From positions 1 through 46,543 of IMG/VR virus record IMGVR_UViG_3300044711_000162: DNA of 46,543 bases; one strand, written 5' to 3'. The position numbers and the translations under genes were made by a program. The notes beneath the pieces are model-generated. The model searched no databases. It saw only the letters and a list, made by a program, of their open reading frames with translations, and had not been told where the DNA came from. Positions 4,340 through 24,094 of the stretch are shown piece after piece. Every line of letters begins with the position of its first letter. Position 1 is the first letter of the stretch. This DNA is from a virus (taxonomy: Duplodnaviria; Caudoviricetes).

Positions 4340-6444
4340 CGGTTGCGTGCACGTTCGCCTATATCATCCGGATGGCGTGCGGCCGCGGCGGGCCGCCGCC
4401 ACCGACGCCGCCGCCTCCGCCACCCCCTCCGCCGCCGTCGCCGACGCCGACGCCGACCCCCACGCCGACGCCAACCCCGACACCTACGCCCACGCCTTCG
4501 CCGACGCCCACGCCGTCGCCGGTTCCGTCGCCGCCGGCGGTCACGCCGGGCGCAGGGTATAAGCTGGGCGTCAACAGCCTGAACCTGACCCAGGGCACGC
4601 CGCAGGCGCCGTTCCGCGACCTGTGGCAGAATTCCGCGTGGCGCGGCGAGAACCTCGAAAAGACCGACCTGGCGATCGAGCAGATGCAGCTCGACAATTT
4701 CGGGCGAGCGCACAGCTATCTGCCCGGACAGTCGTCGCTGAAGCTGCGACTGCAGGATTATTATTATTCGGGGCAGGAGGGCGAATATACCGTCACCGGG
4801 CCGACGGGCTTTACCGGCGTGATCACGGTCGACGGCGCGACGGTAACGCAGGCGTGGAACGGCACCAGCTGCAAATTCACGGTGCCGCTGTCGCCCGATG
4901 GCGGGAACCAGATCTTCGTCAACTTCTCCGGCGCGATCCCGGCGGCCGGGCTCTACTGTTCGATCCTGCGCACGAGCGACAGCAGCGGGCTAAGGGTCAA
5001 CGACCTGTTCGTGAACAATCTCGCGCTGGTCGCGAGCCTGTTCCGATCGATGCAATGGAGCCGCACGTTCGACAATTACGGTGTCAACGCGGGCGGGCTG
5101 GGCCTGATCCCGCGCACCCTGGCGAAGCGCTGGCAAGGGCCGGCGACGATGGGCCCGGTGATGATCGAAATACTGGTCGAGCTGTGCAATCGCGCCAATT
5201 GCGACCTGTGGTTCAACTGGAGCGAGATCGACAGCGACGATCTGTTGAGCTGGACGTTCGACTATATCGCCGCGAACCTCAATTCAGGCCTCAAGCTGCA
5301 CTGCGAAATGTCGGACGAGATCTGGAACGGGGCGGTGCCGTATCTGGCGGCGGAACGCAACGTCCGCTACCTCGGCCTGTGCGCGGGCTATGCGATCGAC
5401 AGCGCCACCTATGGCACGGCGATACCGCACACGATTCGCTATAATTTCTCGGAGAAGCCCGGGACGAACGATCCGGCGGCATCGGCCGTCACGCTGGTCG
5501 ACTGCGCGGCCGGCGACCTGATCTTCATGTATCTGACCGGCGTCGGCTTCTGGACGATGCAGGCGATGGTGGACGTGCCGGCGGGCACGACGATGCAGGT
5601 GCCGAACACGTCGGAAGCGGCGCGCACCTGGATCGAAGGCAGCACGGTGACGCCCGACGGCAAGTTCAAGCTGGTCTGGGGCACCGGGAGTTGCAAGACG
5701 GCGGGCTATCGCTGGGTCGCGCAGCGCACGTTGGATGTGCGCACGCTCGCGCGGGCGTCGTTCGCGGCGGCGGGACGTGCGATGCCGTTTTTCCATATCG
5801 GCCATCAGGCGGGTGCGCTGAACATCAACCCGATCAGCCTGGCGCTCGACTGGAACAACGCAGGGGCGACGATCGAATATGTGTGCACGGGCCCCTATTG
5901 GGGCAACGGCCCGGGGATGACCGACGGGCCCAACAAGCTGGGACCGTACACGACGAACATGTACCCGGTGATCGCCAACGTGACGTATCGCCAGCACCCC
6001 TGGACGGCGACGCAAAAGGTGCTGATCACGACGGATATTCCGGCGTGGCGCAACTCGTTCTGGGCGGTGGCGATCGACGCCATCACGTCGGTCTCGCTCA
6101 AGATCGTGCAGATGAAGGCCGACCTGGCGGCGAAATATCCGTCGATCAAGCTGAGCTTCTACGAGTTCGGATGGCACGTCATCTTCAGCGGAACGCAGCC
6201 CGACCAGCTCGTGACCGAATACCCGGTGCTGGTGCGCAGCCAGGCCTATGCCGATGTGCTGGCCTATTATCTGACGGTGATGAGCGAACATGGCGGGCCG
6301 CAGTGCCTGTTCGTGCTGGGCCCGTCCAAGGTCCTGTCGAATTCCTACGTCAAAGGCTATTGGTCGATGTTCGAATCCGAAGCGGATGTCGGCACCGACA
6401 ATCTGCGCTGGACCAAGCTCAAAGCGTACAAGGCCGCGCACTGA
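4336..6444 (+). CDS. Pro/Thr-linker protein with clan GH-A-like glycoside hydrolase domain (702 aa)
   Basis: True start is probably ATG 4336 (ATGA overlap), not 3736; motifs LFRSMQW, LVELCNRANCDLWFN, EMSDEIWN, FYEFGWH. Confidence 0.65.
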   Translation: MTVACTFAYIIRMACGRGGPPPPTPPPPPPPPPPSPTPTPTPTPTPTPTPTPTPSPTPTPSPVPSPPAVTPGAGYKLGVNSLNLTQGTPQAPFRDLWQNSAWRGENLEKTDLAIEQMQLDNFGRAHSYLPGQSSLKLRLQDYYYSGQEGEYTVTGPTGFTGVITVDGATVTQAWNGTSCKFTVPLSPDGGNQIFVNFSGAIPAAGLYCSILRTSDSSGLRVNDLFVNNLALVASLFRSMQWSRTFDNYGVNAGGLGLIPRTLAKRWQGPATMGPVMIEILVELCNRANCDLWFNWSEIDSDDLLSWTFDYIAANLNSGLKLHCEMSDEIWNGAVPYLAAERNVRYLGLCAGYAIDSATYGTAIPHTIRYNFSEKPGTNDPAASAVTLVDCAAGDLIFMYLTGVGFWTMQAMVDVPAGTTMQVPNTSEAARTWIEGSTVTPDGKFKLVWGTGSCKTAGYRWVAQRTLDVRTLARASFAAAGRAMPFFHIGHQAGALNINPISLALDWNNAGATIEYVCTGPYWGNGPGMTDGPNKLGPYTTNMYPVIANVTYRQHPWTATQKVLITTDIPAWRNSFWAVAIDAITSVSLKIVQMKADLAAKYPSIKLSFYEFGWHVIFSGTQPDQLVTEYPVLVRSQAYADVLAYYLTVMSEHGGPQCLFVLGPSKVLSNSYVKGYWSMFESEADVGTDNLRWTKLKAYKAAH
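4393..4540 (+). repeat. Low-complexity coding repeat (poly-Pro, PT/PS linker)
   Basis: ccgacg/ccgccg hexamer repeats encoding PPPPTPPPP..PTPTPTPT. Confidence 0.95.
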
Positions 6445-6976
6445 CGCGCCGACGAAGCGATACGCCGGCGAGTGCGAAGCCGGCGAGGAGCATCGCCCAG
6501 GTCGAAGGCTCGGGCACGGTGAGCCATGTGACCGGCGCATGCGCGAGGCCCGGCGCGTTGAATTCTCCGGCCTGGCCGGGCATCAATATGTTGGAATCGA
6601 ATACCGGCCACGGATCGCTGGCAAAGTAGCGAATCGTCGAGAAGTCGATGCTGGGGCCGGTGCCCGTGAGGCTCACCCATGGCGACGTCAGCCCGTCGTC
6701 CTTGTGGTAGGTGATGGTGAAGAAACCGGCATAGTCCGTCGTGCTGCCGCCGGCAGGCGTGAGATGCAGCGCGCCCGTGAACGTCCAATAGAATGTAAAC
6801 GGATCGATGATGTAGGTGCCGGTGAAGTCGCGCGGGGCGAGCACCGAGCCGGTGTAGATCGTGCCGCCGGCGCCGTCGTCGAGCGCCCACGAACGGCCGA
6901 GCGGTTGGGCGGTGGCGCTCGCCGCGATCGGGGCGAGCAACAGGGCAAGTGACGCTAAGATCCGAAACAGTTTCAT
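6419..6976 (-). CDS. PEP-CTERM (PEPxxWA-type) exosortase-target surface protein; moron
   Basis: N-terminal signal peptide; C-terminal VPEPSTWAMLLAGFALAGVSLRRR; AGAGGGGA RBS. Confidence 0.92.
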   Translation of the reverse strand: MKLFRILASLALLLAPIAASATAQPLGRSWALDDGAGGTIYTGSVLAPRDFTGTYIIDPFTFYWTFTGALHLTPAGGSTTDYAGFFTITYHKDDGLTSPWVSLTGTGPSIDFSTIRYFASDPWPVFDSNILMPGQAGEFNAPGLAHAPVTWLTVPEPSTWAMLLAGFALAGVSLRRRVSARPCTL

Positions 6977-7003
6977 GGCAGATCCCCTCTGTTAGGACTG
7001 AGG

Positions 7004-7032
7004 AGTCTGCCACTCTAAACCACTAGCGGCAA
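7004..7032 (-). promoter_or_regulatory. Sigma70-like promoter for the PEP-CTERM gene
   Basis: TTGCCG-17 nt-CAGACT on the minus strand. Confidence 0.55.
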
Positions 7033-7120
7033 TGACGTGCATGTTTCAGATCGGGAATGGATCAATCGGCGCTGCGACAAAGCCCCGGAAAAAGCACAAA
7101 CTGGCGCAATCGCGACAGGC

Positions 7121-7133
7121 TAAGTTGTTGATT
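7121..7133 (-). promoter_or_regulatory. IHF binding site
   Basis: Minus strand AATCAACAACTTA matches WATCAANNNNTTR. Confidence 0.7.
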
Positions 7134-7152
7134 TAGCTTGGTCGTCGCTTAA

Positions 7153-7174
7153 CTTACCATTAGACGACAGGGCA
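7153..7174 (-). other. 5' fragment of a tRNA (Gln-like): acceptor stem strand and D-arm; att core
   Basis: TGCCCTGTCGTCTAATGGTAAG, after which tRNA similarity stops; not a full tRNA. Confidence 0.75.
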
Positions 7175-7185
7175 CCGGGAGGGGC

Positions 7186-7214
7186 GCTCTAAACCGCAGA
7201 TTTCTGCGGGTCAA
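7186..7214 (-). promoter_or_regulatory. Stable-RNA-type promoter pointing into the tRNA fragment
   Basis: TTGACC-17 nt-TAGAGC followed by GC-rich discriminator GCCCCTCCCGG. Confidence 0.65.
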
Positions 7215-7340
7215 GGCGGTTTTCGCTGCGACGCTGCGACGACATTTGCCGTCGCACTGCGACAAAAATTCGCGACTCGGCGATTCGCGAGCGGCGCCCG
7301 AGCCGCCTTTCGAGCGATTCGGGCGCCGTCCAAAGGTCGC

Positions 7341-7369
7341 AAAGGGTATGCAGATTGTGCATACCCTTT
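7341..7369. terminator. 12-bp inverted repeat at the end of the antirepressor operon (terminator and/or operator)
   Basis: AAAGGGTATGCA-GATTG-TGCATACCCTTT; nearly identical to the palindrome within the BRO gene. Confidence 0.7.
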
Positions 7370-7595
7370 AGGCGCGCCGATTGTCGTTGCTGGCGCAGGG
7401 CATGTGGGCGGCGCGCATGAGGCGGCGGCGGGCATGCCACCACGCGTTCTCGTAGAGGCGCCGGACCTCGCGATCGGGCTCGCCCTGGCGGGCCGCCCTT
7501 TGCGCCTGGCGATGATCGGCATCGAGCAGCTCGCGAATCTTGCGGAACTGGAACCGTGCCGTGTCGACGCCGTAGCTGAGGCTGATGCCGGTCAT
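7368..7595 (-). CDS. Hypothetical protein (75 aa)
   Basis: ATG at 7595 overlaps the BRO stop (ATGA); MTGISLSYGVD start. Confidence 0.6.
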   Translation of the reverse strand: MTGISLSYGVDTARFQFRKIRELLDADHRQAQRAARQGEPDREVRRLYENAWWHARRRLMRAAHMPCASNDNRRA

Positions 7596-8317
7596 AGCGA
7601 CTGCTCGACCAACGTCGCGGCAGCGGTCCTGCGCCAGATCCAGCGAGGTATCCCCTGAAGCCGCTGGCGCGTCTTCTCCCATCCGAGGGCTCGCATCACT
7701 TCGCCGAGCCGGAGCGCATTCCGCGCGTCGGCCTGCAGGCCGAGCGCGGCACTCAACTCCCCCACTTCGATCATATCCTTGCCCGCGAGAGCATCGGTTA
7801 CGCTGTGAGCGAAGCCGGTGTCGCTGAGCGCATCGGCGATCGGCGCCGGTAGGCCGATGCGAATCCAGATGTGGCGGCACTCCTCACGGCTCCAGATCTG
7901 GCGTGCTTCGCGCATGATGCCGATCGCGGCATTGAGGCGCGGCATTTCGGCGTCCTCGATCGCCGGCGAAGGCAGTTTAGGCACATCGGAAAGCATGTCG
8001 TAGCGGCCAGTCTTGCGCAGCGATGGCAGCACTTCGCCCGTCACCCAGCGGCGGAAGCGCTTGGCTTCGGGCCGCCGCGACTTGAGGATCGCCGCGAACA
8101 GGCCGGATTCGGAGATGATCGTCATCTCCTGCTGGCCTCCAAGGGTCTGCACAATCTGCAGACCCTTTTCGTCGTCGTCGAGGCTGCGCGTCATTGCCGC
8201 CGCCTCGCTATAGCCGAGGACGGCGGACACGTCGCCGGCTACCCACCAAGGTTCGTCGTCTTGCATGACGACGCGGACCATTTCGGTTTCGAATGTGAAA
8301 TTGACTAAGGCATTCAT
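7592..8317 (-). CDS. BRO-N domain antirepressor-like protein (241 aa)
   Basis: MNALVNF.FE..VRVV..DDEPWWVAGDV..LGY; ISESGLFAAILKSRRPEAKRFRRWVTGEVLPSLRKTGRY. Confidence 0.93.
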   Translation of the reverse strand: MNALVNFTFETEMVRVVMQDDEPWWVAGDVSAVLGYSEAAAMTRSLDDDEKGLQIVQTLGGQQEMTIISESGLFAAILKSRRPEAKRFRRWVTGEVLPSLRKTGRYDMLSDVPKLPSPAIEDAEMPRLNAAIGIMREARQIWSREECRHIWIRIGLPAPIADALSDTGFAHSVTDALAGKDMIEVGELSAALGLQADARNALRLGEVMRALGWEKTRQRLQGIPRWIWRRTAAATLVEQSL

Positions 8318-8325
8318 GGTCAGTC

Positions 8326-8356
8326 CCCAAAGTTGGTCCGACCGCCGCAGGCTAAT
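8326..8356 (-). promoter_or_regulatory. a2/b2-type target sites of c4-like RNA A, overlapping the ant RBS
   Basis: Transcript ATTAGCCT and CTTTGGG are complementary to loops AGGCTAAT and CCCAAAG of the RNA at 8360-8442. Confidence 0.85.
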
Positions 8357-8359
8357 GCG

Positions 8360-8442
8360 GGTGGCCGGACGTGCCACGATTAGCCTTACCGCCCTTTGGG
8401 AAGCGGCGCACCCGAAGGTGCTCGCGACACGCCCGACCATAG
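8360..8442 (-). ncRNA. c4-like antisense RNA, copy A
   Basis: CTATGGTCGGGCGTG..GCACCTTCGGGTGC GCCGC..GGCGG..CACGTCCGGCCACC multi-stem fold; complementary targets on both sides; upstream of an antirepressor. Confidence 0.85.
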
Positions 8443-8477
8443 AAAACCGCGCTCGAGCGGTTAGCTGGCGCGGGGCG

Positions 8478-8526
8478 CCCAAAGAGTTGGTGGGAGGCTA
8501 ATCCCTTGCCCGGATTTTGCCGGGCA
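8478..8526 (-). promoter_or_regulatory. a1/b1-type leader (hairpin plus target sites)
   Basis: TGCCCGG-CAAAAT-CCGGGCA hairpin followed by GATTAGCCT and CTTTGGG. Confidence 0.8.
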
Positions 8527-8532
8527 GGCGGG

Positions 8533-8561
8533 AATATGACACCGCGCGCCGCGCTTGGCAA
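8533..8561 (-). promoter_or_regulatory. Promoter of the c4-A/ant operon
   Basis: TTGCCA-17 nt-CATATT with extended TG. Confidence 0.7.
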
Positions 8562-8586
8562 TTGTCATGGGTTCTCCTTCCAGGTT

Positions 8587-8669
8587 GGTGGCCGGACGTG
8601 CCTCGTTTGGAGTCACCGCCTGAACGCGAGCGGCGCACCCGAAGGTGCCCGTGGCACGCCCGACCATAG
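8587..8669 (-). ncRNA. c4-like antisense RNA, copy B (different loop sequences)
   Basis: Same 83-nt scaffold as copy A; the two guide segments are replaced. Confidence 0.8.
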
Positions 8670-8691
8670 GACCGCCGTCAGGCGGTATTGC

Positions 8692-9960
8692 TCACGCCTG
8701 TTCCTCCCGTTCCCGTTGCGCCTCGAGGTGCGCGACGCCGGCGGCGACGCATGCGCAGGCCGCGGCGGTGTCACCCGGCATGTAGGTATCGAGGATGGTT
8801 TTCTTGCCGAGGATCATGTGACCGCTGAGGGCGGTGATCCAGGGCATTTTGGCGCCGCAATCGCGGTAGAACATCATGCCGGTGCGGCGGAGATCGCGGA
8901 ACTGGCAGCGTTCGATCGCGTCGGCCAGATCGGGCTGATCGCGCATGATGGCGACGGCCCAGGCGGCGGCGCGCGCGGCGGCGAAGCGGCGCTGAAAGGT
9001 CTTTTCGTGGAGCGGCTCGTCCGGCTTTTCGGGCTTTGGGAACAGCCATTCGCTGGTGCTGTCGCGCCAGTGCGCGTCGATCGTCGCGTGCAGCGCAGGC
9101 GGGACGGGCGCGTCGACCCATGTGCCGGTCTTTTGCTGGCAGAGGCGGAAGCCGAACACGCGGCCCTGCGCATTGGCGAGCACGGCGCGATCGCGCGGCT
9201 CGACATCGTGCAGCTCGCGCCAGGCAAAGCGATTGAAGTGCCGAATATCGGCCTGGCGCTGGACGATCCAGAAGCCGAGGTCGATCGCGAGCGCGAGCCA
9301 GATCTCGCCGAGTTCGGCCGCGGCCTCCGCGATGGCGGCGCGCGCGGCGGTGGGCATGGTGACCTTGCGCGCGGGCGGGACCGGCACGTCGGCGCGGCTG
9401 GCGGGGTTCGAGTTCTTGGGGATGATCCCCTCTGCCTCCGCCCATTCGAGCAGCAGGTGCAGCACGCGCATCATCGCCGCGGCCTTGTGCGCGCTGCCCT
9501 TCACCAGTTCGTTGCGGAGCGCGCGGACGAGTTCGGCGTCGATATCGCGCACGGGCAGTTCGCCGTCGAGCGCCCAATGGGTGAGCGCCTTGAGGCGGCT
9601 TTTGTATTCGCGCTGGGTGCTGTCGCGGTTGGTAGTGTAGGCATCGCTCGCCATGTAGCGGAGCACGAGCTCGCCGAAGCGCACCACGCGGGGGAGCGGG
9701 CGCGCCGGCGCGTCGTTGGCGGCCTTTGCCTGGTTCTTCTCCCAGGCATCGACGCGCTCGTTCAGTTCGATGGCCAGGTCGGCGATGTGCTTTGGCGCCT
9801 TGCTGTATTTGAGGACCTTGGCGGGCGTGCCGCCGGTGCCGAGGCGCTGGTTGACGAAGGCGGCGGCGCGCAGCCGCGGCGAGGGTTTCCAGTGCCAGAC
9901 CAGCGTGCCATCGGCGAGCAGGGCGGGCGTGAGGAACTGGATCTGGCGCTGCTTGGGCAT
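8692..9960 (-). CDS. int: Tyrosine integrase
   Basis: QRQADI (R), QQKT (K), FRDLRRT, SGH, ILDTY catalytic motifs; 422 aa. Confidence 0.92.
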   Translation of the reverse strand: MPKQRQIQFLTPALLADGTLVWHWKPSPRLRAAAFVNQRLGTGGTPAKVLKYSKAPKHIADLAIELNERVDAWEKNQAKAANDAPARPLPRVVRFGELVLRYMASDAYTTNRDSTQREYKSRLKALTHWALDGELPVRDIDAELVRALRNELVKGSAHKAAAMMRVLHLLLEWAEAEGIIPKNSNPASRADVPVPPARKVTMPTAARAAIAEAAAELGEIWLALAIDLGFWIVQRQADIRHFNRFAWRELHDVEPRDRAVLANAQGRVFGFRLCQQKTGTWVDAPVPPALHATIDAHWRDSTSEWLFPKPEKPDEPLHEKTFQRRFAAARAAAWAVAIMRDQPDLADAIERCQFRDLRRTGMMFYRDCGAKMPWITALSGHMILGKKTILDTYMPGDTAAACACVAAGVAHLEAQREREEQA

Positions 9961-9963
9961 GGC

Positions 9964-10314
9964 CTATAGCCCCGCCATGGTGGCGATGCGATCGCGATCG
10001 AGCGCGGCGTGTTCCGCGAGGCTGTGGCGGAGCCGCTCGACCGTGTCGGCGCGGAGGACCGTGGGCAGTCCGCGCGCGTTCAGTTCGGCGCGGAAGGGAT
10101 CGGGCATGCCGCCGTCCCACAGCGCCTGGGCGATATCGTGCAGGCCATCGTCCCATGCGATGAGCGCGAATTGCGGCAACAGCCGCGTCGGCACCGGGCG
10201 CGCGCCGGAATACATGCGCTGCCAGCTGCGCTCCGATATGCCGAACTGCCGAAGCGCGGCCGCGAGATCGGGGCGGCTGCGCGAGAAGGCGCGGAATGCT
10301 TCGTGGGTGGACAA
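9964..10314 (-). CDS. HTH-like DNA-binding protein upstream of int
   Basis: AGGAGG RBS before TTG at 10314; AAALRQFGISERSWQRMYSG helix-turn-helix. Confidence 0.6.
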   Translation of the reverse strand: MSTHEAFRAFSRSRPDLAAALRQFGISERSWQRMYSGARPVPTRLLPQFALIAWDDGLHDIAQALWDGGMPDPFRAELNARGLPTVLRADTVERLRHSLAEHAALDRDRIATMAGL

Positions 10315-10375
10315 ATCGGCCTCCTTTTGCCGGTGAGGCGCGGCGATGGTGACTCGCCGCGGGGGGAAGGTCAAA

Positions 10376-14883: not shown

Positions 14884-15062
14884 AGCCCGATCCGCTGCGC
14901 GATGCGTGCCAGGAGCGCTGCGCCCAGTTCGGCGATCCGCCGTGCTTCGATGTGGTCGCCGACTGGGGCGATCAGTGCTGGTGCGACGACTGCAAGCGGG
15001 AAGCGGGTGTCGAGGTTTTCGAGCCGCTGGATCCGGCGGCGGTGATCGGGCCGTTGTTGTGA
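14880..15062 (+). CDS. Small Cys-rich hypothetical protein (60 aa)
   Basis: GGAGG RBS, GTG start, CQERCAQFGDPPC..CWCDDC. Confidence 0.6.
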   Translation: MKPDPLRDACQERCAQFGDPPCFDVVADWGDQCWCDDCKREAGVEVFEPLDPAAVIGPLL

Positions 15063-16138
15063 TGAACGCGGGCGATCTTGCCGAGCTTCATCGCCGGGCC
15101 GATCGCGTGCGCAGTCAGACGCGCCTGTCGACCGTGATCGGCGGCGACGTGAAGCTGCGGCCGGTGGGCAAGGAATGGGAGGGGCTGTGCCCGTTCCATA
15201 GCGACAAGCGCGTCGGCGCCTTCATGGTGAACGACGCCAAGGGCATCTTCAAATGCTTCTCTTGCGGTGCAGGCGGCGACGTCTTCAAATACCTCGAGCT
15301 CCGCAAGGAAATGAGCTTCATGCAAGCGCTGCGCGCGCTGGAAGCCGACGCTGGAATCGATTTTCGCAATGCCAAGGCGAAGGCGGAATATGATCGTCAC
15401 GCCGAGCGGCGCGCGATGGCCGATGCGGACGATCTGGAGAAGCGCCGGCGCAAGGCTGAGGGCCTGTGGCATTTCGCGTCGAAGCTGGAAGGTTCGCCGG
15501 CGCAGCTGTATCTGGAAGGGCGCGGGATCGACTTTCTCGCGATCGGGCGTTTCCCCGGCGCGATCCGGTACAAGCACGATTGCTGGAACAGCGAACTGCA
15601 TCGCCCGATGCCCGCGATGGTGACGGCGATGCTGAGCCTGGCGCCGATCGCCGGCGCGCGGCGGCCGACGCATCATCTGGCGACGCACCGCACCTATCTG
15701 GAGTTCGTTCGCGGGCGCTGGATCAAGGCGCGCGTCGAAAAGCCCAAGATGGTGCTGGGCAGCTTCGCCGGCGCGCATATTCCGATCTCGAAAGGCGCAG
15801 GGCCGCGCGGAACGCTGGCGGACGTGCCGGCGGGTACGGTGCCGTTCGTTTCCGAAGGGATCGAGGACGCTTTGACCATTGCCATGGCTTGGCCGGACGC
15901 GCGCGTGCTGGCGGCGGCGACGCTGGGCAACATCGGTGCGATGCAGCTGCCCACGGCGGTGAGTGAACTGGTAATCGTGGGCCAGCACGACAAGCCCGGA
16001 AGCGCGGCCGATGCGAGCCTGGAGAAGCAGATCGCGCTGCATCAGGAGGCGGGGCGGAAGGTGCGGTGCATCTGGCCGGACCCGCTGTTCAAGGATTTCA
16101 ACGACCAGCTGCGCGGTGTGCGCATGGAGGGGGTATGA
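15062..16138 (+). CDS. DNA primase (CHC2 Zn finger plus Toprim)
   Basis: GLCPFHSD..FKCFSCGAGGDV; VSEGIEDAL; KDFND; start ATG 15062. Confidence 0.92.
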   Translation: MNAGDLAELHRRADRVRSQTRLSTVIGGDVKLRPVGKEWEGLCPFHSDKRVGAFMVNDAKGIFKCFSCGAGGDVFKYLELRKEMSFMQALRALEADAGIDFRNAKAKAEYDRHAERRAMADADDLEKRRRKAEGLWHFASKLEGSPAQLYLEGRGIDFLAIGRFPGAIRYKHDCWNSELHRPMPAMVTAMLSLAPIAGARRPTHHLATHRTYLEFVRGRWIKARVEKPKMVLGSFAGAHIPISKGAGPRGTLADVPAGTVPFVSEGIEDALTIAMAWPDARVLAAATLGNIGAMQLPTAVSELVIVGQHDKPGSAADASLEKQIALHQEAGRKVRCIWPDPLFKDFNDQLRGVRMEGV

Positions 16139-16671
16139 CCCGGAGCGTTTTGCAGAATTGGGTGCAGGGGCTGAGCTTCATGCAGCAGACGGTGTTGATG
16201 ACGGCGATCCGGGGACCTGACGGAACGCCGAAATATGGGCCCGCGAAGCTTCTGTTGCGTTGGTACCGCCGCTGCGTCTTGCTGAGCGCCATGGACGGCA
16301 AGGTGCTCGAAACGCCGTACGAATCTGGTGGCGGGAGTTTTACCGGGCCTAGCTTTTCCATCGATCCGATCGCGCAGCTGTGGTGCGCGCACAAGATCGA
16401 TTGGCCAGGCATGATGGACAAGGTGGTCAACGAGTATTTGCGCGAGATCGACGCGCTGCCGCACCATTTCCAACTGCACCTGCTCCATGCCGCTGAGATC
16501 CTGGGCTACAAGCATCCTTCGCCGTCGGTGCGGATCTGGTGGAATCGAACCTATTCGCGCCTCGTGCACGACATGCACCTATGGCCGGAAACGGAAGATC
16601 AGATGGACCGGCGCCTGGGCGACAACCGCGAGCAATGGCTTGAGCGGAACGATCCGGCGACCGTGGACTGA
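16135..16671 (+). CDS. Hypothetical phage protein (178 aa)
   Basis: GGAGG RBS; ATGA coupled; MTRSVLQNWV start. Confidence 0.8.
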   Translation: MTRSVLQNWVQGLSFMQQTVLMTAIRGPDGTPKYGPAKLLLRWYRRCVLLSAMDGKVLETPYESGGGSFTGPSFSIDPIAQLWCAHKIDWPGMMDKVVNEYLREIDALPHHFQLHLLHAAEILGYKHPSPSVRIWWNRTYSRLVHDMHLWPETEDQMDRRLGDNREQWLERNDPATVD

Positions 16672-16676
16672 CGCGC

Positions 16677-17045
16677 GTGGTAGATCTCTGTCTCAATGGC
16701 GTTTCTCGCGTAGTGGTGCTCGTGGGCCCCTGGGCGATCAAGGTGCCCCGATTTGGCTATGGCTGGGCCATGGGCCTGCGCGGACTGCTGGCGAACATGC
16801 AGGAAGCGGTCTTCTCGCGTGCCCGCTGGCCGGAGCTTTGCCCGGTCGTGTTCGCGCTGTGGGGCGGCTGGCTGATCGTCATGCGGCGCGCGCGGCCGAT
16901 GACCGATGTTGAATGGGAAACCTTCAATGTGGAGGCCTTTCGCTACCCGAACGACGACTATTCGCGCGTGATCCCGGTGGAGGAGAAGCGCGACAGCTTC
17001 GGCTGGCTGGATGGGCGCGTGGTAGCCGTCGATTACGGATCCTAG
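16677..17045 (+). CDS. Minimal protein-kinase-like fold protein
   Basis: G.SRVV..AIKVP, N..E, VEEKRDSFG..GRVVAVDYG resemble kinase subdomains I-III, VIb and VII. Confidence 0.55.
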   Translation: MVDLCLNGVSRVVVLVGPWAIKVPRFGYGWAMGLRGLLANMQEAVFSRARWPELCPVVFALWGGWLIVMRRARPMTDVEWETFNVEAFRYPNDDYSRVIPVEEKRDSFGWLDGRVVAVDYGS

Positions 17046-17048
17046 TTC

Positions 17049-18926
17049 ATGGCCGGGGGCGGAAACATCGACAGCATCAAGGCGCGGGTGCAAAAGCCCG
17101 TCGACGCGCCGGATCTGCGCCGGCAGCAACCCGGACCCGGCGACCAGCTCGACTTGCCGATGATGCCGCCGGACTGCCCGGTTACCGCGCTGGGCATTCA
17201 GGGCCTGAAGCTGTGGTTGTTGGACGCGGCCAACCAGATCCAGCAGCTGAACACCGATTGCCGCAAGGGCGACATGACGTTGGTGTTCGGCGGCGACGGC
17301 TGGCTGATCGACAATTTCCCGCAGTTTTCGAATTTCGAGCGCGAGCACGAACTGCCGGCGAGCAAGTTCGACCAGAACAGGGTGCAGACCGCGCTGATCA
17401 CCGCGTGCTGGGCGAAAGGAATATTCGACCCGCAGGGCCGCGTGTTCGGCCGCGGGGCACACCGTGCCGGCGAGGATGACGACAAGCTGGTGCTCCATAT
17501 GGGGCGCAACGTCCTGATCGCCGGCGAGAGCGACAAGAAGGGCAAGCTGGGGCCGCTTAGCGAGCATCCGGCGGGCCAGATCGACGGGAAATTCTATCCC
17601 GCGCTGGGCGCATTGCCGCCGCCGGACAGCAAGGCGAGCACGATCGCGGACGCGGAATCGCTGATGGAGCTGTTTCGGCAGTGGAACTGGCTGGACAAGG
17701 ATGCCGCGCCGCTGCTGCTGCTCGGCATGAGCGCGCAGATGCATATCTGCGGCGCGCTGGTGTGGCGATCGCACATGTGGCTGGCGGCGCAGACCACCGC
17801 CGGCAAGAGCTCGCTGCAGAAGCTGCTGCGCGCGATCCATGGCGGATGGTGCCTGCATACCGAGGATGCGAGCGAAGCGGCCGTGCGGCAGACGCTGGGC
17901 GACGATACGCTGCCGGTGCTAATCGACGAAGCCGAGGCGGACGACAATCCGGAGCGGCAGAAGGCGATCCTGAACCTGCTGAAAAAGGCGAGCAGCGGCG
18001 CCAAGATGCACCGCGGATCGTCGGACCATCGCGCGCAGGAATTCACGGCGCAGTCGGCGTTCCTGTTGTCATCGGTGCTGCATAGCCTGGTGAAGGGCGA
18101 GGAGTGGAATCGCGTCGTCGTGCTGCAGCTGCGCCCTGCAGAGCGCGCCGACACGATGTGGCAGGAGCCGCCGCTGAAGCACTGGCGCCAGCTGGGCCGG
18201 AAGATGCATCGGCGCATGATCGAGCAATGGCCGCGGTTCGCGCGGACGTTGGCCGATTACAAGCTCGAGATCTGGCGGCACGGGCTCGGCGGGCGCTGGC
18301 AGGATACCTATGGCACGTTGCTGGCGTGCGCCGACTGCCTGTTGTTCGATTGCGCGCCGAGCATGGAAAGCGAGCTGAACGACGGCTACGGGCGCGAAAA
18401 GCGCTGGGTGCAGATGATGCTGCCCATGATGTATCAGGGCCAGAGCCAGGCCCGCAGCGACGAGGATCGCTGCCTGCTGCACCTGATGAGCACGACGTTG
18501 GCCGGCGAGCATGGGCGGGCTCCGGAGGCCGTGGGGCATTGGGTGAAGCGCGCGATGACGCTTCGCCCGACGGAAGACAACGATCCCACGGGCGGGATGG
18601 ACGCGGCCGCGCGCGACCGCCTGAAATCGAACGGGATGCGCCTGGTGCGGCTGAAGGACAGCGACAAGGGCTGGAAGCTGGATGGCGAGCCGCAGCCGAG
18701 CGAGGATGGGTGGAACGATCCGGCGGCCTATCTGGCCGTAGCCTATCCGACGTGCGTGCCGCTGCGCGATTTGTTCAGGGGCAGCGACTGGGCGGGCGGG
18801 CGCTGGATGCAGTCGCTGGGCCGGATCCCCGGGGCGGTGACGAATCGGCTGAAGATCCGGTTCGCGGGAGAGTTGCCGGATAACGCGATCGCGGTGCCGC
18901 TGCGGGCGTTGAGGGGGGAGCCGTGA
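17049..18926 (+). CDS. Replicative helicase / P-loop NTPase partner of the primase
   Basis: Walker A AQTTAGKS, Walker B VLIDEAE; in the primase operon. Confidence 0.8.
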   Translation: MAGGGNIDSIKARVQKPVDAPDLRRQQPGPGDQLDLPMMPPDCPVTALGIQGLKLWLLDAANQIQQLNTDCRKGDMTLVFGGDGWLIDNFPQFSNFEREHELPASKFDQNRVQTALITACWAKGIFDPQGRVFGRGAHRAGEDDDKLVLHMGRNVLIAGESDKKGKLGPLSEHPAGQIDGKFYPALGALPPPDSKASTIADAESLMELFRQWNWLDKDAAPLLLLGMSAQMHICGALVWRSHMWLAAQTTAGKSSLQKLLRAIHGGWCLHTEDASEAAVRQTLGDDTLPVLIDEAEADDNPERQKAILNLLKKASSGAKMHRGSSDHRAQEFTAQSAFLLSSVLHSLVKGEEWNRVVVLQLRPAERADTMWQEPPLKHWRQLGRKMHRRMIEQWPRFARTLADYKLEIWRHGLGGRWQDTYGTLLACADCLLFDCAPSMESELNDGYGREKRWVQMMLPMMYQGQSQARSDEDRCLLHLMSTTLAGEHGRAPEAVGHWVKRAMTLRPTEDNDPTGGMDAAARDRLKSNGMRLVRLKDSDKGWKLDGEPQPSEDGWNDPAAYLAVAYPTCVPLRDLFRGSDWAGGRWMQSLGRIPGAVTNRLKIRFAGELPDNAIAVPLRALRGEP

Positions 18927-19219: not shown

Positions 19220-19854
19220 TCGGTTACGCCTCGCGCACCGGCACTCGCCGCAACCTTGCAGCGCTGCGTCGGGAAGATTGGCGGCTGCTGATTTCGTCCG
19301 CCGGCGTGCATCGAGACGAAGGCTTCCGCTTCGCGATCGACAACGGGAAGTGGAGCGCGCACACGACAGGCCAACCGTGGGACGAGGCCGCGTTCGAGCG
19401 CCTTCTGGGTACTCACGGTCCGCGCGCTGACTGGATCGTCGTGCCCGACATCGTTTGCGGTGGCGCCGAATCGCTGGCCTTGTCACGCGCATGGTTGCCG
19501 CGGCTCCAGGCACGCCGCGAGCTCGCCGGCCGAGTGTTCCTGATCGCCGTGCAGGACGGGATGACGCCCGCCGATCTGCACGACTTGGCCGGCCCGAGCG
19601 TGGGGATCTTCGTCGGCGGCTCGACCGAATGGAAAGAGGCCAGCATGACCGCTTGGTGCGCATTCGCGCGCGAGAGGCAAGCCATTGCACATATCGGCCG
19701 CGTGAACTCCGTCCGAAGGATCTTCCTTTGCGCGGCCGCCGGCGCGACCAGCTTTGATGGTTCAAGTGGCTCGATGTACGCGCGCAATATTCCGATGCTC
19801 GCAAACGCGGCGCGACAGACTGATCTCGAGTTGCTAATTCGGCGGGCCGCCTGA
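19216..19854 (+). CDS. TGT/DpdA-like base-exchange transglycosylase
   Basis: AIDNGKW, VPDIV, AVQDG, FVGGS, HIGRVN, SFDGS motifs in TGT-barrel order; GTGA-coupled to the QueD-like gene. Confidence 0.7.
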   Translation: MIGYASRTGTRRNLAALRREDWRLLISSAGVHRDEGFRFAIDNGKWSAHTTGQPWDEAAFERLLGTHGPRADWIVVPDIVCGGAESLALSRAWLPRLQARRELAGRVFLIAVQDGMTPADLHDLAGPSVGIFVGGSTEWKEASMTAWCAFARERQAIAHIGRVNSVRRIFLCAAAGATSFDGSSGSMYARNIPMLANAARQTDLELLIRRAA

Positions 19855-20744
19855 TGGGGCAGAACACGTCAGCCGTGAGCGCTACCCCCCCCTGCAGGCC
19901 TTCACGGCCGCTGTTGCGCTACCTGGGCAGCAAATGGCGCCTGGCGCCGTGGGTGATTGGGCACTTCCCCGATCACGAGATCTACGTCGAGCCGTGCGGC
20001 GGCGCATTTGCGGTGGGCCTGCAAAAGCCGCGATGCCGGACGGAAGTGTGGAACGATATCGATGGCGACCTGGTCAACCTGTTCGAGGTGCTGCGATCGA
20101 GCGCCGCCGGCGAGCTGATCCGGCAAGTTTCCCTGACCCCCTATGCGCGATCAGAATATCTCGAGGCGCATTTGCCGTCGACCGATCCGATCGAGCGTGC
20201 GCGGCGGCTGCTGATCCGGTCGCACATGGGGCATGGCACGCGCGGAACGCGTGTCGATCGCGCCGCGGGCTTTCGGAGCGATGGCAAGACCGGCGGTACG
20301 CGCGTGGCGGGTGAGTGGGCCGACTTTCCGGGGCCGCTGGCGGCGATCGTGGAGCGGGTTCGCGGCGTGTCGCTCGACTGCCGGCCGGCAGCTGAGCTGC
20401 TGACCTATTGGGACGATCCGAAAGTGCTGGTGTATCTGGATCCGCCCTATGTGCCGTCGACGCGCAGCGACAAGGCCAAGCAGGCTGAAGGGTATCACAC
20501 CTATGCATGCGAGATGACGCCGGCGGACCATGTCGAGCTGATCGAGCATGCGCGTGCGTCGCGATCGATGGTGCTGATTTCCGGCTATGAAAGCGAGCTG
20601 TACGACGATGCTCTGCGGGGATGGGAGCGCCGCACGGTCAAGGCGAGGGCGCACCGCAATGCCGAGCGCCTCGAGGTGATTTGGATCAATCCCCTCGCGG
20701 CCGCGCGGCTTCGCGCCGGGCCGTTGTTCGACCTGGCGGCGTGA
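19854..20744 (+). CDS. Dam/D12-class DNA adenine methyltransferase
   Basis: YLGSKW, YVEPCGG, NDID, YLDPPY, LISGY. Confidence 0.93.
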   Translation: MGQNTSAVSATPPCRPSRPLLRYLGSKWRLAPWVIGHFPDHEIYVEPCGGAFAVGLQKPRCRTEVWNDIDGDLVNLFEVLRSSAAGELIRQVSLTPYARSEYLEAHLPSTDPIERARRLLIRSHMGHGTRGTRVDRAAGFRSDGKTGGTRVAGEWADFPGPLAAIVERVRGVSLDCRPAAELLTYWDDPKVLVYLDPPYVPSTRSDKAKQAEGYHTYACEMTPADHVELIEHARASRSMVLISGYESELYDDALRGWERRTVKARAHRNAERLEVIWINPLAAARLRAGPLFDLAA

Positions 20745-21466
20745 TGGGGCAGAATACGTCCACAGCGGTGATGCAGGCCCGCGTTGAAGCGCACGACTCG
20801 CTCGACGACTTCCCTACTCCGCCCTTTGCCACGCGCGCATTGATCCGATTCCTCGTGGAGCTCGGCTATCCGCTCAACCGCCAGAAGGCGTGGGAACCGT
20901 GCTGCAACCGCGGCTTCATGGTCGCGCCGATGCGCGAGATTTTCGCCAGCGTGCGCGCGAGCGACGTCATGCGCTATTCCGACTATGTGCTTGAGGACGT
21001 GCCCGAGCTGATCGACTTCGCGACAACCGGCATGACCGAGCCGGATGTAGATTGGGTGTTCGGCAATCCGCCGTTTCGCCTGGCCGAGGAATTCATTCAC
21101 GTTGCGCGGCGGGTTTCACGCGTGGGCTGTGCGATGCTGGTTCGCGGCGCGTTTACCGAGGGCACAGGTCGGTACGAGCGTCTGTTCGGGCCTCGGCCGC
21201 CGGACTATGAATTGAAGTTCAGCGAGCGCGTCGTGATGCTCAAGGGGCGGCTCATCCGCGCCGGCGCTCCCGATCCGTTCAACCCCACGGAGCCGGGGAA
21301 GCCCGCGTCGACGGCAACCAGCTACGTCTGGCTGGTGTTTCTCCGCGACGGTGACGGGGACACCCGCGCCCGCTGGATCGCTCCATGCCGCTCGCGCCTC
21401 GAGCGCGCCGGCGACTATCCGGACTATGCGCTTGGCGTGGCGCCTGCAGCGGGATCGCTGCTTTAG
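20744..21466 (+). CDS. Second amino-methyltransferase (NPPF type, 240 aa)
   Basis: DDFPTPP, WEPCC.RG, ASDV, GNPPF; start ATG 20744 (TGATG). Confidence 0.85.
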   Translation: MGQNTSTAVMQARVEAHDSLDDFPTPPFATRALIRFLVELGYPLNRQKAWEPCCNRGFMVAPMREIFASVRASDVMRYSDYVLEDVPELIDFATTGMTEPDVDWVFGNPPFRLAEEFIHVARRVSRVGCAMLVRGAFTEGTGRYERLFGPRPPDYELKFSERVVMLKGRLIRAGAPDPFNPTEPGKPASTATSYVWLVFLRDGDGDTRARWIAPCRSRLERAGDYPDYALGVAPAAGSLL

Positions 21467-21678
21467 GTTTTACGGTGCTGGGCTTCGCGCCTGGCGATCG
21501 CGTCCTCGACCGCGGCGCGGAGAAAGTCCGCCTTCTTCACGTCACCGCGCACGGCCTCGATACGCCGTGAGGTGCCATCTTTGGCGAGAAACGATAACTG
21601 CTCGGTGAATTCTTTCGGGCGAGTCACGCGGCGTGATTTAGCCGCCGAAATTCCACTAGTCGAATCTCGCGCTGACAT
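21463..21678 (-). CDS. Ribbon-helix-helix DNA-binding protein
   Basis: RPKEFTEQLSFLA..RIEAVRG..KADFLRAAVEDAI. Confidence 0.7.
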   Translation of the reverse strand: MSARDSTSGISAAKSRRVTRPKEFTEQLSFLAKDGTSRRIEAVRGDVKKADFLRAAVEDAIARREAQHRKT

Positions 21679-21691
21679 GCGGGCGCTCCCT

Positions 21692-21738
21692 TCGATAACC
21701 GCTAGTGGATAAGCGACATATCCACTAGCGGTTATCGA
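21692..21738. repeat. Perfect 20-bp inverted repeat
   Basis: TCGATAACCGCTAGTGGATA-AGCGACA-TATCCACTAGCGGTTATCGA. Confidence 0.95.
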
Positions 21739-21753
21739 GTCCAGCGCGCCGGC

Positions 21754-21975
21754 CTAGTGCTTTTTCTTGCGCTTTCGCTTTCGCGGCTCGGCCTGAAGGA
21801 AGAGGGCGTCGGAAGCACGGGCCAGCTTGCGGACCCGTCGGACGAACGTCATCAGCACGATCGCAGGATAGACCTTGTGGATCGCGATCACGCCGTCGAC
21901 TCGATCGATAATGTGGATTTTGTCATCGACGAGGAAGACCTCCGGCGCGGAAGTCAGGTGGTGTACGCTGCACAT
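21754..21975 (-). CDS. Small hypothetical protein with basic tail (73 aa)
   Basis: GGAG RBS before ATG 21975; ends RKRKRKKKH. Confidence 0.55.
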   Translation of the reverse strand: MCSVHHLTSAPEVFLVDDKIHIIDRVDGVIAIHKVYPAIVLMTFVRRVRKLARASDALFLQAEPRKRKRKKKH

Positions 21976-22090
21976 TTTCTCTCCGTCCCCCCCGTTATGT
22001 TTTTTGGGGACGGAGAAAATCAGCGACACCGCGAAGGGGAGTCAAGGACAATCCACTAGTCGAAATGGGAATCCCGGAGGGGGACGGGCG

Positions 22091-24094
22091 CTATTGTCCG
22101 AGCCCCGGCTGGTTGGCCGCGACCAGGGCACGCGCAACGGGCGGACAGACGCTGTTGCCGATCGCGCTGATCTGCTCGGCGATCGTTAGGGGCTCGAATA
22201 CTTCCTTGCCGCGCTTGATCTTGCGCACGATGGGGTCGAGCACATAGTCGTCGGGAAAGCCCTGCGCGCGCGCCAGCTCGCGCGGCTTGAGCATGCGCAG
22301 GCCGATATCGACGATGACATAGGTGACGGCGTCGATCGTGACGGTGACGACGGCGTAGCGCGCCTGGACGGTGATGACGTCGATCGGCTTGTCGACGCGC
22401 TGGTGCTGGCCGACCTCCGAGCCATAGTACTTCACGAGGAAGGCGGCGACCTGCACCGCGCGCTCCATCATGTCCGCGGGCAGAGCGCCTTCCTCGATCA
22501 TGGTGGTCTCGACGATGCGCTGCGTCGATCCCTTGCCGACGATCGTCGACAGCGGCTTGCGCGGCGTGTGACCGACCATGCCGGTGTTCGCCTGCTCGAT
22601 GTGCGCTGCGACGACGGCATGGTGCTGGCCACCCGCGCGAACGACCTTGTTCGGCTGTGCTGGGTCACCTCCGCCGCCCGTGGTGTTGCTGCCGTAGAAG
22701 CTCGACAGAAAGGCGGTGACTGCGGCATGGCCGCCGCCAGTGTCGATCGTGCGGAGTGGGTCATGCGCGTCGAAAGCGTTGATCGCGTTCGACTGATGCA
22801 TGTCTGTACGGACCATGGTTGCCGCAACCAAACCATGCCTCGTCGCGCCCGACATCGCGGTGTCGAGCGGCTCGGCCGGGTCCTTCCCGACACCGTTCTG
22901 CGCCATCTTGTGGAGGTGAACAGCCGCAAGCGCCTCGTCGCGCGACGCCGTCGGTGTTGGCGCGGGTTCGGCAATGTCATGATGGCCTTTGCCCCGACGT
23001 TTCCCGCTCCTGTCGACTTCGCCATGCCCAGTACGGACCAACGTCGCGCCGACCAGACCAAGCGGCATCGCCCCGGCCGGTCGCTCCGGGTCACCGTTGC
23101 TGGTGACCACCGGCATTTCCTTGTCCATCGGCGATCCGACGCTGCCGCTGTGGAACTTCGTGATGTGCGGCGCGAGCTCGACGTCGACCGCGGCGAACTC
23201 GCCACCATTGGCAGTCGTGATCGTCCGCTTCGGTTCGTCGACCCCATAGACGCGCGCGTCGCCGCTATGCGTCACCGGCACGAGGAATGGCTGCGCGGCG
23301 TTGACGACATAACGCATCACGCCGTGGGCGATTCGGCGAAGCGTCGCATCCTTGAGCGGGCGCTTGCGCGTGAAGATCGACGGGCATTCAATCGACCAGT
23401 CGATGCACTCGGCTGCGGTGGGGTAAGTGGGGAGGTTTTGGAGATCCTTGAGGGTCAGTCCGTGGCCCTTCGCCCAGGCAGTGACGATGCCATGCTTGAA
23501 GCCGGCAGGGCGATGCGTCGGTTTCGGCCAGACGATCGGCCGACCGTCGCGCCGAAGGATGATGTAGAGGCGCCGGCGGCTCGTTGGCGTGCCATAGTCG
23601 CAGGCGCGAAGCGTCCGCCAATCGACCTTGTAGCCGAGCCCGCGCCAGGCGCGCACGAGACGCTTGAAGTCGCGCCCTTTCAGTTCCGGGATCGGCACCC
23701 CGTTCTCATCGAGCGGCGCCGCGTACTCATATTCTTCGACGTTTTCGATGAAAGCGACAAGCGGCTGCACCTCGCGCAGCCAGTAGGTCACCTCGTTCGA
23801 CAGCGCGCGGATGTGGCGGTTCTTGACCGGCCCTCCCTTCGCCTTGCTGTACTCTTTGCAGTCGGGGCTGAACCAGGCCACCGCGACCGGCTGCAGTCTG
23901 GTTGCCGCCTTCGGCCACACGGCGCGGATGTCCTGGCAGAGATGCTCGGTGCCGGGATGGTTCGCTTTGTGGATCGCGATAGCGGATGGGCTGTGGTTGA
24001 TGGCGAGGTCGACGTCGCGGCCGAGCGCCTGCTCGATACCCGTTGACGCGCCGCCGCCTCCGGCGAAGCCGTCGATGATGAGGCCCTGGAACAT
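22091..24094 (-). CDS. C5-cytosine DNA methyltransferase with long repetitive variable region
   Basis: FAGGGG, SPDC, ENVEE, RRRL, RELARAQGFP, IGNSVCP. Confidence 0.94.
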   Translation of the reverse strand: MFQGLIIDGFAGGGGASTGIEQALGRDVDLAINHSPSAIAIHKANHPGTEHLCQDIRAVWPKAATRLQPVAVAWFSPDCKEYSKAKGGPVKNRHIRALSNEVTYWLREVQPLVAFIENVEEYEYAAPLDENGVPIPELKGRDFKRLVRAWRGLGYKVDWRTLRACDYGTPTSRRRLYIILRRDGRPIVWPKPTHRPAGFKHGIVTAWAKGHGLTLKDLQNLPTYPTAAECIDWSIECPSIFTRKRPLKDATLRRIAHGVMRYVVNAAQPFLVPVTHSGDARVYGVDEPKRTITTANGGEFAAVDVELAPHITKFHSGSVGSPMDKEMPVVTSNGDPERPAGAMPLGLVGATLVRTGHGEVDRSGKRRGKGHHDIAEPAPTPTASRDEALAAVHLHKMAQNGVGKDPAEPLDTAMSGATRHGLVAATMVRTDMHQSNAINAFDAHDPLRTIDTGGGHAAVTAFLSSFYGSNTTGGGGDPAQPNKVVRAGGQHHAVVAAHIEQANTGMVGHTPRKPLSTIVGKGSTQRIVETTMIEEGALPADMMERAVQVAAFLVKYYGSEVGQHQRVDKPIDVITVQARYAVVTVTIDAVTYVIVDIGLRMLKPRELARAQGFPDDYVLDPIVRKIKRGKEVFEPLTIAEQISAIGNSVCPPVARALVAANQPGLGQ

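Follow-up and report, generated by a model that had tools for sequence, protein, structure and literature searches.

C4 switches set immunity groups by a two-box RNA code. The C4 class is marked by RNase P processing, which gives a stable RNA of about 77 nt. Among known systems, the closest to the one described here is the immI locus of phages P1 and P7 (RF01695; AF234172), in which a promoter is followed by a1, b1, c4, a2, b2, icd and ant. It holds one C4 and no free-standing second copy. We follow the P1 annotation (AF234172) in naming the upstream box a and the downstream box, which lies over the ribosome binding site (RBS), b. In the excerpts of the accounts cited here, RNase P release and stability of P1 c4 are given as established (PMC5320573), and C4 specificity is described as the basis of P1/P7 heteroimmunity, with c4 listed as trans-acting (PMC12197685). 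The P4 immunity region comprises PLE, seqA, the CI RNA, seqC and eta/kil (PMC10111431, PMC4825925, both in excerpt). There, termination is prevented when eta is translated across the leader (PMC10111431). The same excerpts contain no orphan CI copy for P4 or for Gifsy-1. In Acinetobacter baumannii, Group 1 C4-like sRNAs are abundant and apparently processed, and trans targeting of incoming phage has been proposed for them, so that the action of C4-like RNAs on other phages is a hypothesis already in print (PMC5320573, in excerpt). In the literature covered, which was mainly open-access and lay outside the original P1/P4 work, we found no phage C4 described as standing in tandem or without a target.

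The stretch of DNA analysed here (the window) is a whole virus record of 46,543 bases with genes for head, tail, endolysin, primase, methyltransferase and integrase. The 46.5-kb window is most likely a temperate soil phage, probably with Sphingomonas as host. The tyrosine integrase (422 aa; 8692–9960, minus strand) matches PHROG 1 integrase with an E of 1.7e-20, and its closest homologue, P0002, is 79% identical; those homologues bearing an organism name come from Sphingomonas. A tRNA gene is often found just after related integrases, and the 15 nt at 7174–7160 are identical to the 5’ end of the post-integrase tRNA in one relative (L070). They lie within a candidate attP core, likely the 5’ part of a tRNA gene (7153–7174, minus strand). 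Taken together, the Sphingomonas homologues and the tRNA match make a temperate sphingomonad phage with a tRNA integration site most likely. Directly 5’ of the integrase lies a small HTH-like gene (about 116 aa; 9964–10314, minus strand), whose Xre-like Pfam match (E 0.03) is below cut-off and whose homologues in the relatives are also located upstream of the integrase. None of the ORFs tested at the gene-direction switch (14900–17050) had a match to a repressor family. One contig from a public run spans 7000–9302 with 0 differences from the window; since that run may be the source sample, it lends no independent support to the sequence. The feature under study, a pair of C4 RNAs, is located between int and attP. 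The order on the minus strand is HTH-like gene, integrase (stop at 8692), hairpin, C4-B, RBS and ATG (8568), promoter (8561–8533), a1, b1, U-tract hairpin, C4-A, a2, b2 and Bro-N gene (ATG at 8317).

Elsewhere in the window, a gene for a PEP-CTERM protein adjoins attP (6419–6976, minus strand; Pfam E 1e-8) and three DNA methyltransferase genes lie within 19854–24094. ARAGORN predicts a 95-nt tRNA-Met at 17016–17110 on the plus strand, overlapping the start of the primase-like gene; Rfam gave no confirmation of this tRNA.

A sequence-only reading of the window had described two 83-nt c4-like copies, A at 8360–8442 and B at 8587–8669. Both are present; they are 81% identical, lie 227 nt apart and exceed the gathering score of 45 of the Rfam C4 model (RF01695), C4-A (8444–8357, minus strand) with 65 bits and an E of 1.8e-10, C4-B (8671–8584, minus strand) with 53.3 bits and an E of 1.4e-7. 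A third copy was not found in the window with filters off. A and B share the C4 three-helix fold with a tetraloop in P2 and exposed a’ and b’ guides. Their folding z-scores are -5.6 and -3.8, respectively, with 0 of 200 shuffles as good, and B ranks 58th in folding among the 92 listed C4s introduced below. An alignment of 8 C4 sequences has 97% of its cells paired and contains 6 pairs with two-sided changes.

From its sequence, A is a complete P1-type C4 switch consisting of promoter, a1-b1, C4, a2-b2 and a Bro-N antirepressor-type gene. The predicted promoter (TTGCCA-17-CATATT; 8533–8561, minus strand) is the sole consensus site in 7000–10200 and ranks top on the minus strand of the genome under a family promoter matrix trained on the C4 promoters of 86 relatives. 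It is followed on the same strand by a seqA/IsrK-like leader (8440–8526), in which a CAAAAUC hairpin, a1 (8503–8495), b1 (8484–8478) and a terminator-like hairpin with U-tract (8462–8443) can be distinguished. C4-A itself, with its b’ loop at 8402–8393 and its a’ junction at 8387–8379, has all four boxes. Its guides are exactly complementary to 8503–8495, 8484–8478, 8356–8349 and 8332–8326, in agreement with the perfect complementarity that had been claimed for four sites. The two downstream boxes are a2 (8356–8349, minus strand) and b2 (8332–8324, minus strand), and b2 covers the RBS of the Bro-N gene, whose start codon is the ATG at 8317; the earlier placement of a site on this RBS thus holds. 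Duplexes of the A guides with a2 and b2 have energies of -10.5 and -12.9 kcal/mol. When both strands are scanned with G-U pairs allowed, leaving aside the strand opposite A itself, the two site pairs of A are its best with scores of 17.5 and 16.5, the next reaching 13.5. The Bro-N gene (241 aa; 7592–8317, minus strand) matches PHROG 130 ‘anti-repressor Ant’ (E 5.7e-50) and Pfam Bro-N (E 3e-23), and its antirepressor role is assigned by family match.

The box order of A, its similar spacing, an a2 starting 3 nt after the RNA, the b2 over the RBS and the antirepressor-type gene are all shared with P1 immI (AF234172), which bears out the a1b1-c4-a2b2 logic proposed earlier. Unlike P1 immI, A has no icd and b2 lies directly on the Bro-N gene, so that A works like immI, yet is not the P1 operon. 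The present phage also differs from P1 in that it integrates and that its host is probably an alphaproteobacterium. Like P4 and Gifsy-1 IsrK, as far as the excerpted accounts describe them, the leader of A ends in a terminator-like hairpin and weakly resembles the isrK/seqA model, scoring 32.6 bits (E 1.7e-4) against Rfam isrK, below the gathering score of 50. By analogy to established P1/P4 biology, the A RNA would be released by RNase P and would pair with a1b1 and a2b2, and this pairing would block translation or cause termination ahead of the antirepressor gene. A is an additional member of an already known, textbook switch.

An ORF of 35 aa (8461–8568, minus strand) precedes C4-A. It had been described as starting at 8568 and running into the promoter of A; the start is correct, but the ORF does not end there, crossing the promoter, a1 and b1 and stopping at 8461. 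Its position is like that of P4 eta, with a start 5’ of the promoter and a course through the leader, but unlike eta as described in the excerpt of PMC10111431 its stop precedes C4-A and its frame is not that of Bro-N. A Pfam search of this ORF gave no match. An ATG-started ORF was present in a comparable position in 31 of 87 cassettes. As a separate observation, the frame of the downstream gene is open for at least 100 nt upstream of the C4 in 32 of 77 cassettes, an eta/Ash-like arrangement.

C4-B (b’ loop 8629–8620, a’ junction 8614–8606) starts with GG(U) and ends with ACCA, read from the sequence as processing ends. It retains all three helices, and most of its guide sequence is predicted to be unpaired. 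P1 contains one A-A mismatch and has 16 pairs, compared to 17–18 pairs in 81 of the 92 listed C4s. The anti-RBS core found in 90 of these 92 loops is missing from the loop of B. The 16 differences between A and B fall into the P3 loop (7), the 3’ junction (4) and distal P1 (5), so that 11 of 18 guide positions but only 5 of 65 scaffold positions differ (Fisher p 5e-6); the copies thus differ mainly in their two guide segments, as had been noted. This clustering of changes in the guides led us to reject B as a simple decaying duplicate of A, and it fits a co-evolved sister specificity. The nearest scaffold to B is A (92%), and A itself has nearer ones elsewhere. The likeness of the two copies reaches about 25 nt further 5’ than the 83-nt repeat.

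For B we tentatively favour, with a probability of roughly 0.45, a reading in which it is a sister-cassette C4 that is made on the integrase transcript and serves in trans as a second key to immunity. Recombination with a related phage would have brought in B from a sister cassette with another code, or the arrival of A would have left it there, and both of its sides would then have been trimmed. RNase P would cut the B RNA out of the integrase transcript, and the RNA would target the antirepressor mRNA of a different immunity group, presumably that of a cassette whose a box is TTGGAGT and whose b box is TGAACGC. Pairing with such a cassette would render the carrier cell resistant to induction by this second group.

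To place B within its family we assembled related C4s. A search for the outer-helix two-arm pattern gave at least 121 viral loci, to which genome samples added few more, and a model built from 8 C4s gave 115 matches among the loci listed. Leaving out 17 rows with an unresolved P3 helix and 6 duplicates yielded 92 C4s including A and B. A box was counted if it formed 6 or more Watson-Crick pairs. Among the 92 listed C4s, 67 have four boxes, 20 have three, 4 have two and one has none; this one is B, the sole C4 lacking all four. Flanks of 900 nt were fetched for 80 loci, of 300 nt for 41 and of 1500 nt for the genome loci; apart from the window, none of the listed loci had a second C4 in them. 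Searches of whole records found two C4s in 6 of 80, the nearest pair being 2.8 kb apart. In the genome samples the pattern matched 1 of 151, 3 of 151, 11 of 401 (3 full C4s) and 17 of 401 (2 full C4s), and none of these four samples (151, 151, 401 and 401) contained tandem C4s. Box counts and the absence of close neighbours indicate that close tandems with a stripped C4 are rare in this C4 subfamily; from the sequences compared, B appears to be a rare target-free second C4 in tandem. In P1, the locus has one C4, and here B adjoins A. A. baumannii Group 1 is similar in that one genome carries several C4 scaffolds whose guide loops vary, but according to the excerpt of PMC5320573 these are many copies in a bacterial genome, as opposed to one box-stripped copy next to a complete cassette on a phage. 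To call A and B an array of reprogrammable antisense RNAs, as had been proposed, claims more than the data show: the units number two and are seen in one genome, no other close C4 tandem occurred among the loci examined, and a CRISPR-like or repeat-spacer array implies at least three repeats with variable guides and recurring acquisition.

The surroundings of B carry traces of a former cassette. On its 5’ side a leader hairpin (8671–8686, minus strand; 6-bp stem, 4-nt loop) is homologous to the terminator hairpin of A without the U-tract. The motif ACCGC-N4..8-GCGGT directly 5’ of the C4 occurs in only 2 of the 92 listed C4s, namely A and B, and the 5’ flank of B has its best match in the 5’ flank of A. 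In the 8 nt before ATGG, B has 2 T residues; 85 of the 92 listed C4s have at least 4. On the 3’ side a strong RBS (8574–8583, minus strand) begins 3 nt after B; it can be aligned with the RBS-start region in other cassettes, that of L157 giving the best match, and the whole resembles the b2/RBS/ATG end of a cassette from which the a2 hairpin has been cut out. The distance from C4 end to start codon is 15 nt at B, compared to at least 35 nt in 80 cassettes. The flanks are thus trimmed to about 20 nt on the side of the integrase stop and to 3 nt on the other side, the RNA being whole. B has neither a promoter of its own nor cognate boxes (0 of 4).

Such flanks are also what a neutral relic would show, i.e. 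the C4 of a previous cassette that lost its promoter, a1b1 and a2 by deletion and had its gene replaced by cassette A; this C4 would perhaps be transcribed and not be under selection. We consider this quite possible without being probable. The loop of B is one insertion and two substitutions away from the complement of the RBS just 3’ of it; this imperfect duplex (-10.6 kcal/mol) is equalled by the B loop on only 2 of 80 foreign RBS regions, but 17 of 91 other loops bind the RBS of B equally well, so that the signal of a former b2 is weak. Also in line with a relic are the single sighting of B, the A-A mismatch in P1 and the mobility of C4 cassettes, 6 of 17 viral integrase relatives having one at another genomic position. 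Among 45 integrase-related loci, none had a C4 nearby in the fetched flanks, many of which were short. A relic does not readily explain why two separate trims left the B RNA exactly intact, why the scaffold is barely altered while the guides differ strongly, or why the guides resemble a working pair, that of the complete cassette L127. A relic or a retained guide silencing the antirepressor of a heteroimmune phage were the two options offered by the sequence-only reading; cassette shuffling fits the flanks of B and a trans role is plausible, but neither is proved and no cognate target was found.

Overlapping the integrase stop, an RBS and a 5-codon GTG ORF (8707–8678, minus strand) end inside the B leader hairpin. 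Relatives begin a full gene at this GTG, which may therefore mark a deletion junction.

The nearest source of a transcript containing B is likely a predicted sigma70 promoter (TTGACC-17-CACCAT; 10346–10374, minus strand) ahead of the HTH-integrase operon. Under the family promoter matrix the site at 10374 is the joint third-best on the minus strand of the genome with a score of 14.5, the training median being 15.6. By eye, a TTGAC/TTGAT hexamer was seen at a similar distance in 10 of 10 tblastn rows (9 distinct; 34 loci searched). No strong promoter site was found between integrase and B, and no terminator-like site on the minus strand in 7000–10200. Lacking its own promoter, with a promoter upstream and no terminator-like site, B would ride on the integrase mRNA; read-through from 10374 would be permitted by the missing U-tract of the B hairpin.

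Targets of B were searched as its complement, TTGGAGT (a) followed about 15 nt later by TGAACGC (b). This genome contains no exact a/b pair for B, and in a scan of both strands with G-U pairs allowed the best non-self pair (14.5) does not stand out, so the description of B as an orphan stands. A 9-nt match to the B loop at 10083–10075 was rejected as a target because it has no partner box. Scans of viral contigs for B-type site pairs gave 40 and at least 120 matches, and 0 of 40 and 0 of 120 listed were near a C4, proximity being judged by the 8-sequence model, which can miss divergent C4s. A pattern search for the guides of B itself gave 0 matches, none of the 92 listed C4s shares them, and no listed cassette fully matches both. 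The nearest guides are those of L127, with 7 of 8 nt in a’ and a 7-nt loop core in common. The guide score between B and L127 is 26, and the family median for nearest neighbours is 26.5; the boxes of L127 pair less strongly with B than with their own C4. However, guide codes are so diverse (86 distinct pairs among the 92 listed C4s, 81 of them seen once, with an estimated chance of 0.88 that a further guide pair is unseen in the sample) that the missing cognate target says little. Such diversity suggests that phages are engaged in a race over the silencing of antirepressors.

Within the genome, the guides of B do pair with the start of the Bro-N gene, a’ with the RBS (8331–8325) and b’ with the start codon (8316–8310). 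B might thus serve in cis as a second lock on this gene. Alternatively, b’ might damp the RBS of the leader ORF, so that read-through from the integrase operon would not turn on the antirepressor. The two Bro-N sites are 15 nt apart, the usual a-b spacing, and fall exactly on RBS and AUG with a joint duplex energy of -16.3 kcal/mol. About 90% of cognate pairs are stronger (median -21.5). The pairing is at chance level with null fractions of 0.08–0.2: it is equalled by 8 of 90 foreign guide pairs, by shuffled B guides in 23 of 300 cases and by B itself on 18 of 89 foreign cassettes. For the leader ORF, control of its translation would matter if it prevented termination as eta does in P4 (excerpt of PMC10111431); its RBS offers a b site alone and no a site. 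Altogether we regard a role in cis as unlikely.

That B has been retargeted, whether to an mRNA of the host, a satellite or a plasmid, is very improbable. The idea has been put forward for host-borne C4-like RNAs in Acinetobacter (PMC5320573, in excerpt), and the loop of B is atypical for the family. Blastn of the region gave no match in phages, and in plasmids it gave one weak match with an E of 0.8, which argues against a plasmid target.

We also looked at C4s in P1-like elements, where places like P1 c4 are frequent (684 in 576 plasmid records). Ten P1-like records chosen for several copies contained 35 Rfam C4 matches, of which 32 were read; 8 rows flagged by the script for guide parsing or G-U pairs were settled by eye. 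Several guide codes per P1-like element are common. Most C4s in these records are complete cassettes mixing few a boxes with few b boxes. None of the 32 C4s read in these ten multi-copy records was without any box, and no orphan C4 with a foreign match was found among them. P1-like phage-plasmids hence also carry several guide codes, but every C4 read there keeps its own boxes, and B has none. Taken record by record, the ten contain 2–6 C4 matches each, and the P1-type records draw on two a boxes and five b boxes, which are combined in a modular code.

These records bear on a wider proposal, that temperate phages capture C4 guides of rivals, trim them to minimal RNase P substrates free of decoy boxes and park them in the integrase 3’ UTR, B being one of them. 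If true, such guides would form an expandable, protein-free RNA collection silencing foreign antirepressors. The 32 C4s contain no box-free copy and this class-level test gives the idea no support; we consider it doubtful. For B alone, the intact RNA, the natural-looking guides, the exact trimming and the likely transcript make a trans-acting guide plausible. Counted against it are the lack of a cognate target, the single occurrence, the weaker pairing with L127, the atypical loop, the 16-pair P1 and the absence of box-free C4s from the P1-like records. Loss of a constitutive promoter runs counter to the simplest outcome expected of selection for lysogen immunity. A target-free second C4 would be a simple protein-free way to broaden immunity, and B, if it is a relic, still records the shuffling of C4 cassettes.

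Other unusual cassettes were noticed in the comparison set. In three compact C4s (L104: 897–989; L144: 897–990; L176: 898–977) the upstream a1 and b1 are close to the RNA, at distances of only about 30 and 15 nt. Two of them, L104 and L144, are without downstream a2/b2 and may likewise have no gene to control. Four further loci (L107, L116, L170 and L213) carry a palindromic insert of about 30 nt between C4 and a2. In the window, a 31-nt inverted repeat (90%) connects an imperfect palindrome near attP (7338–7368) with the Bro-N coding sequence (8141–8171), and some of the inserts resemble this palindrome and a stretch inside Bro-N genes. The palindromic insert is possibly an operator of the Bro protein.
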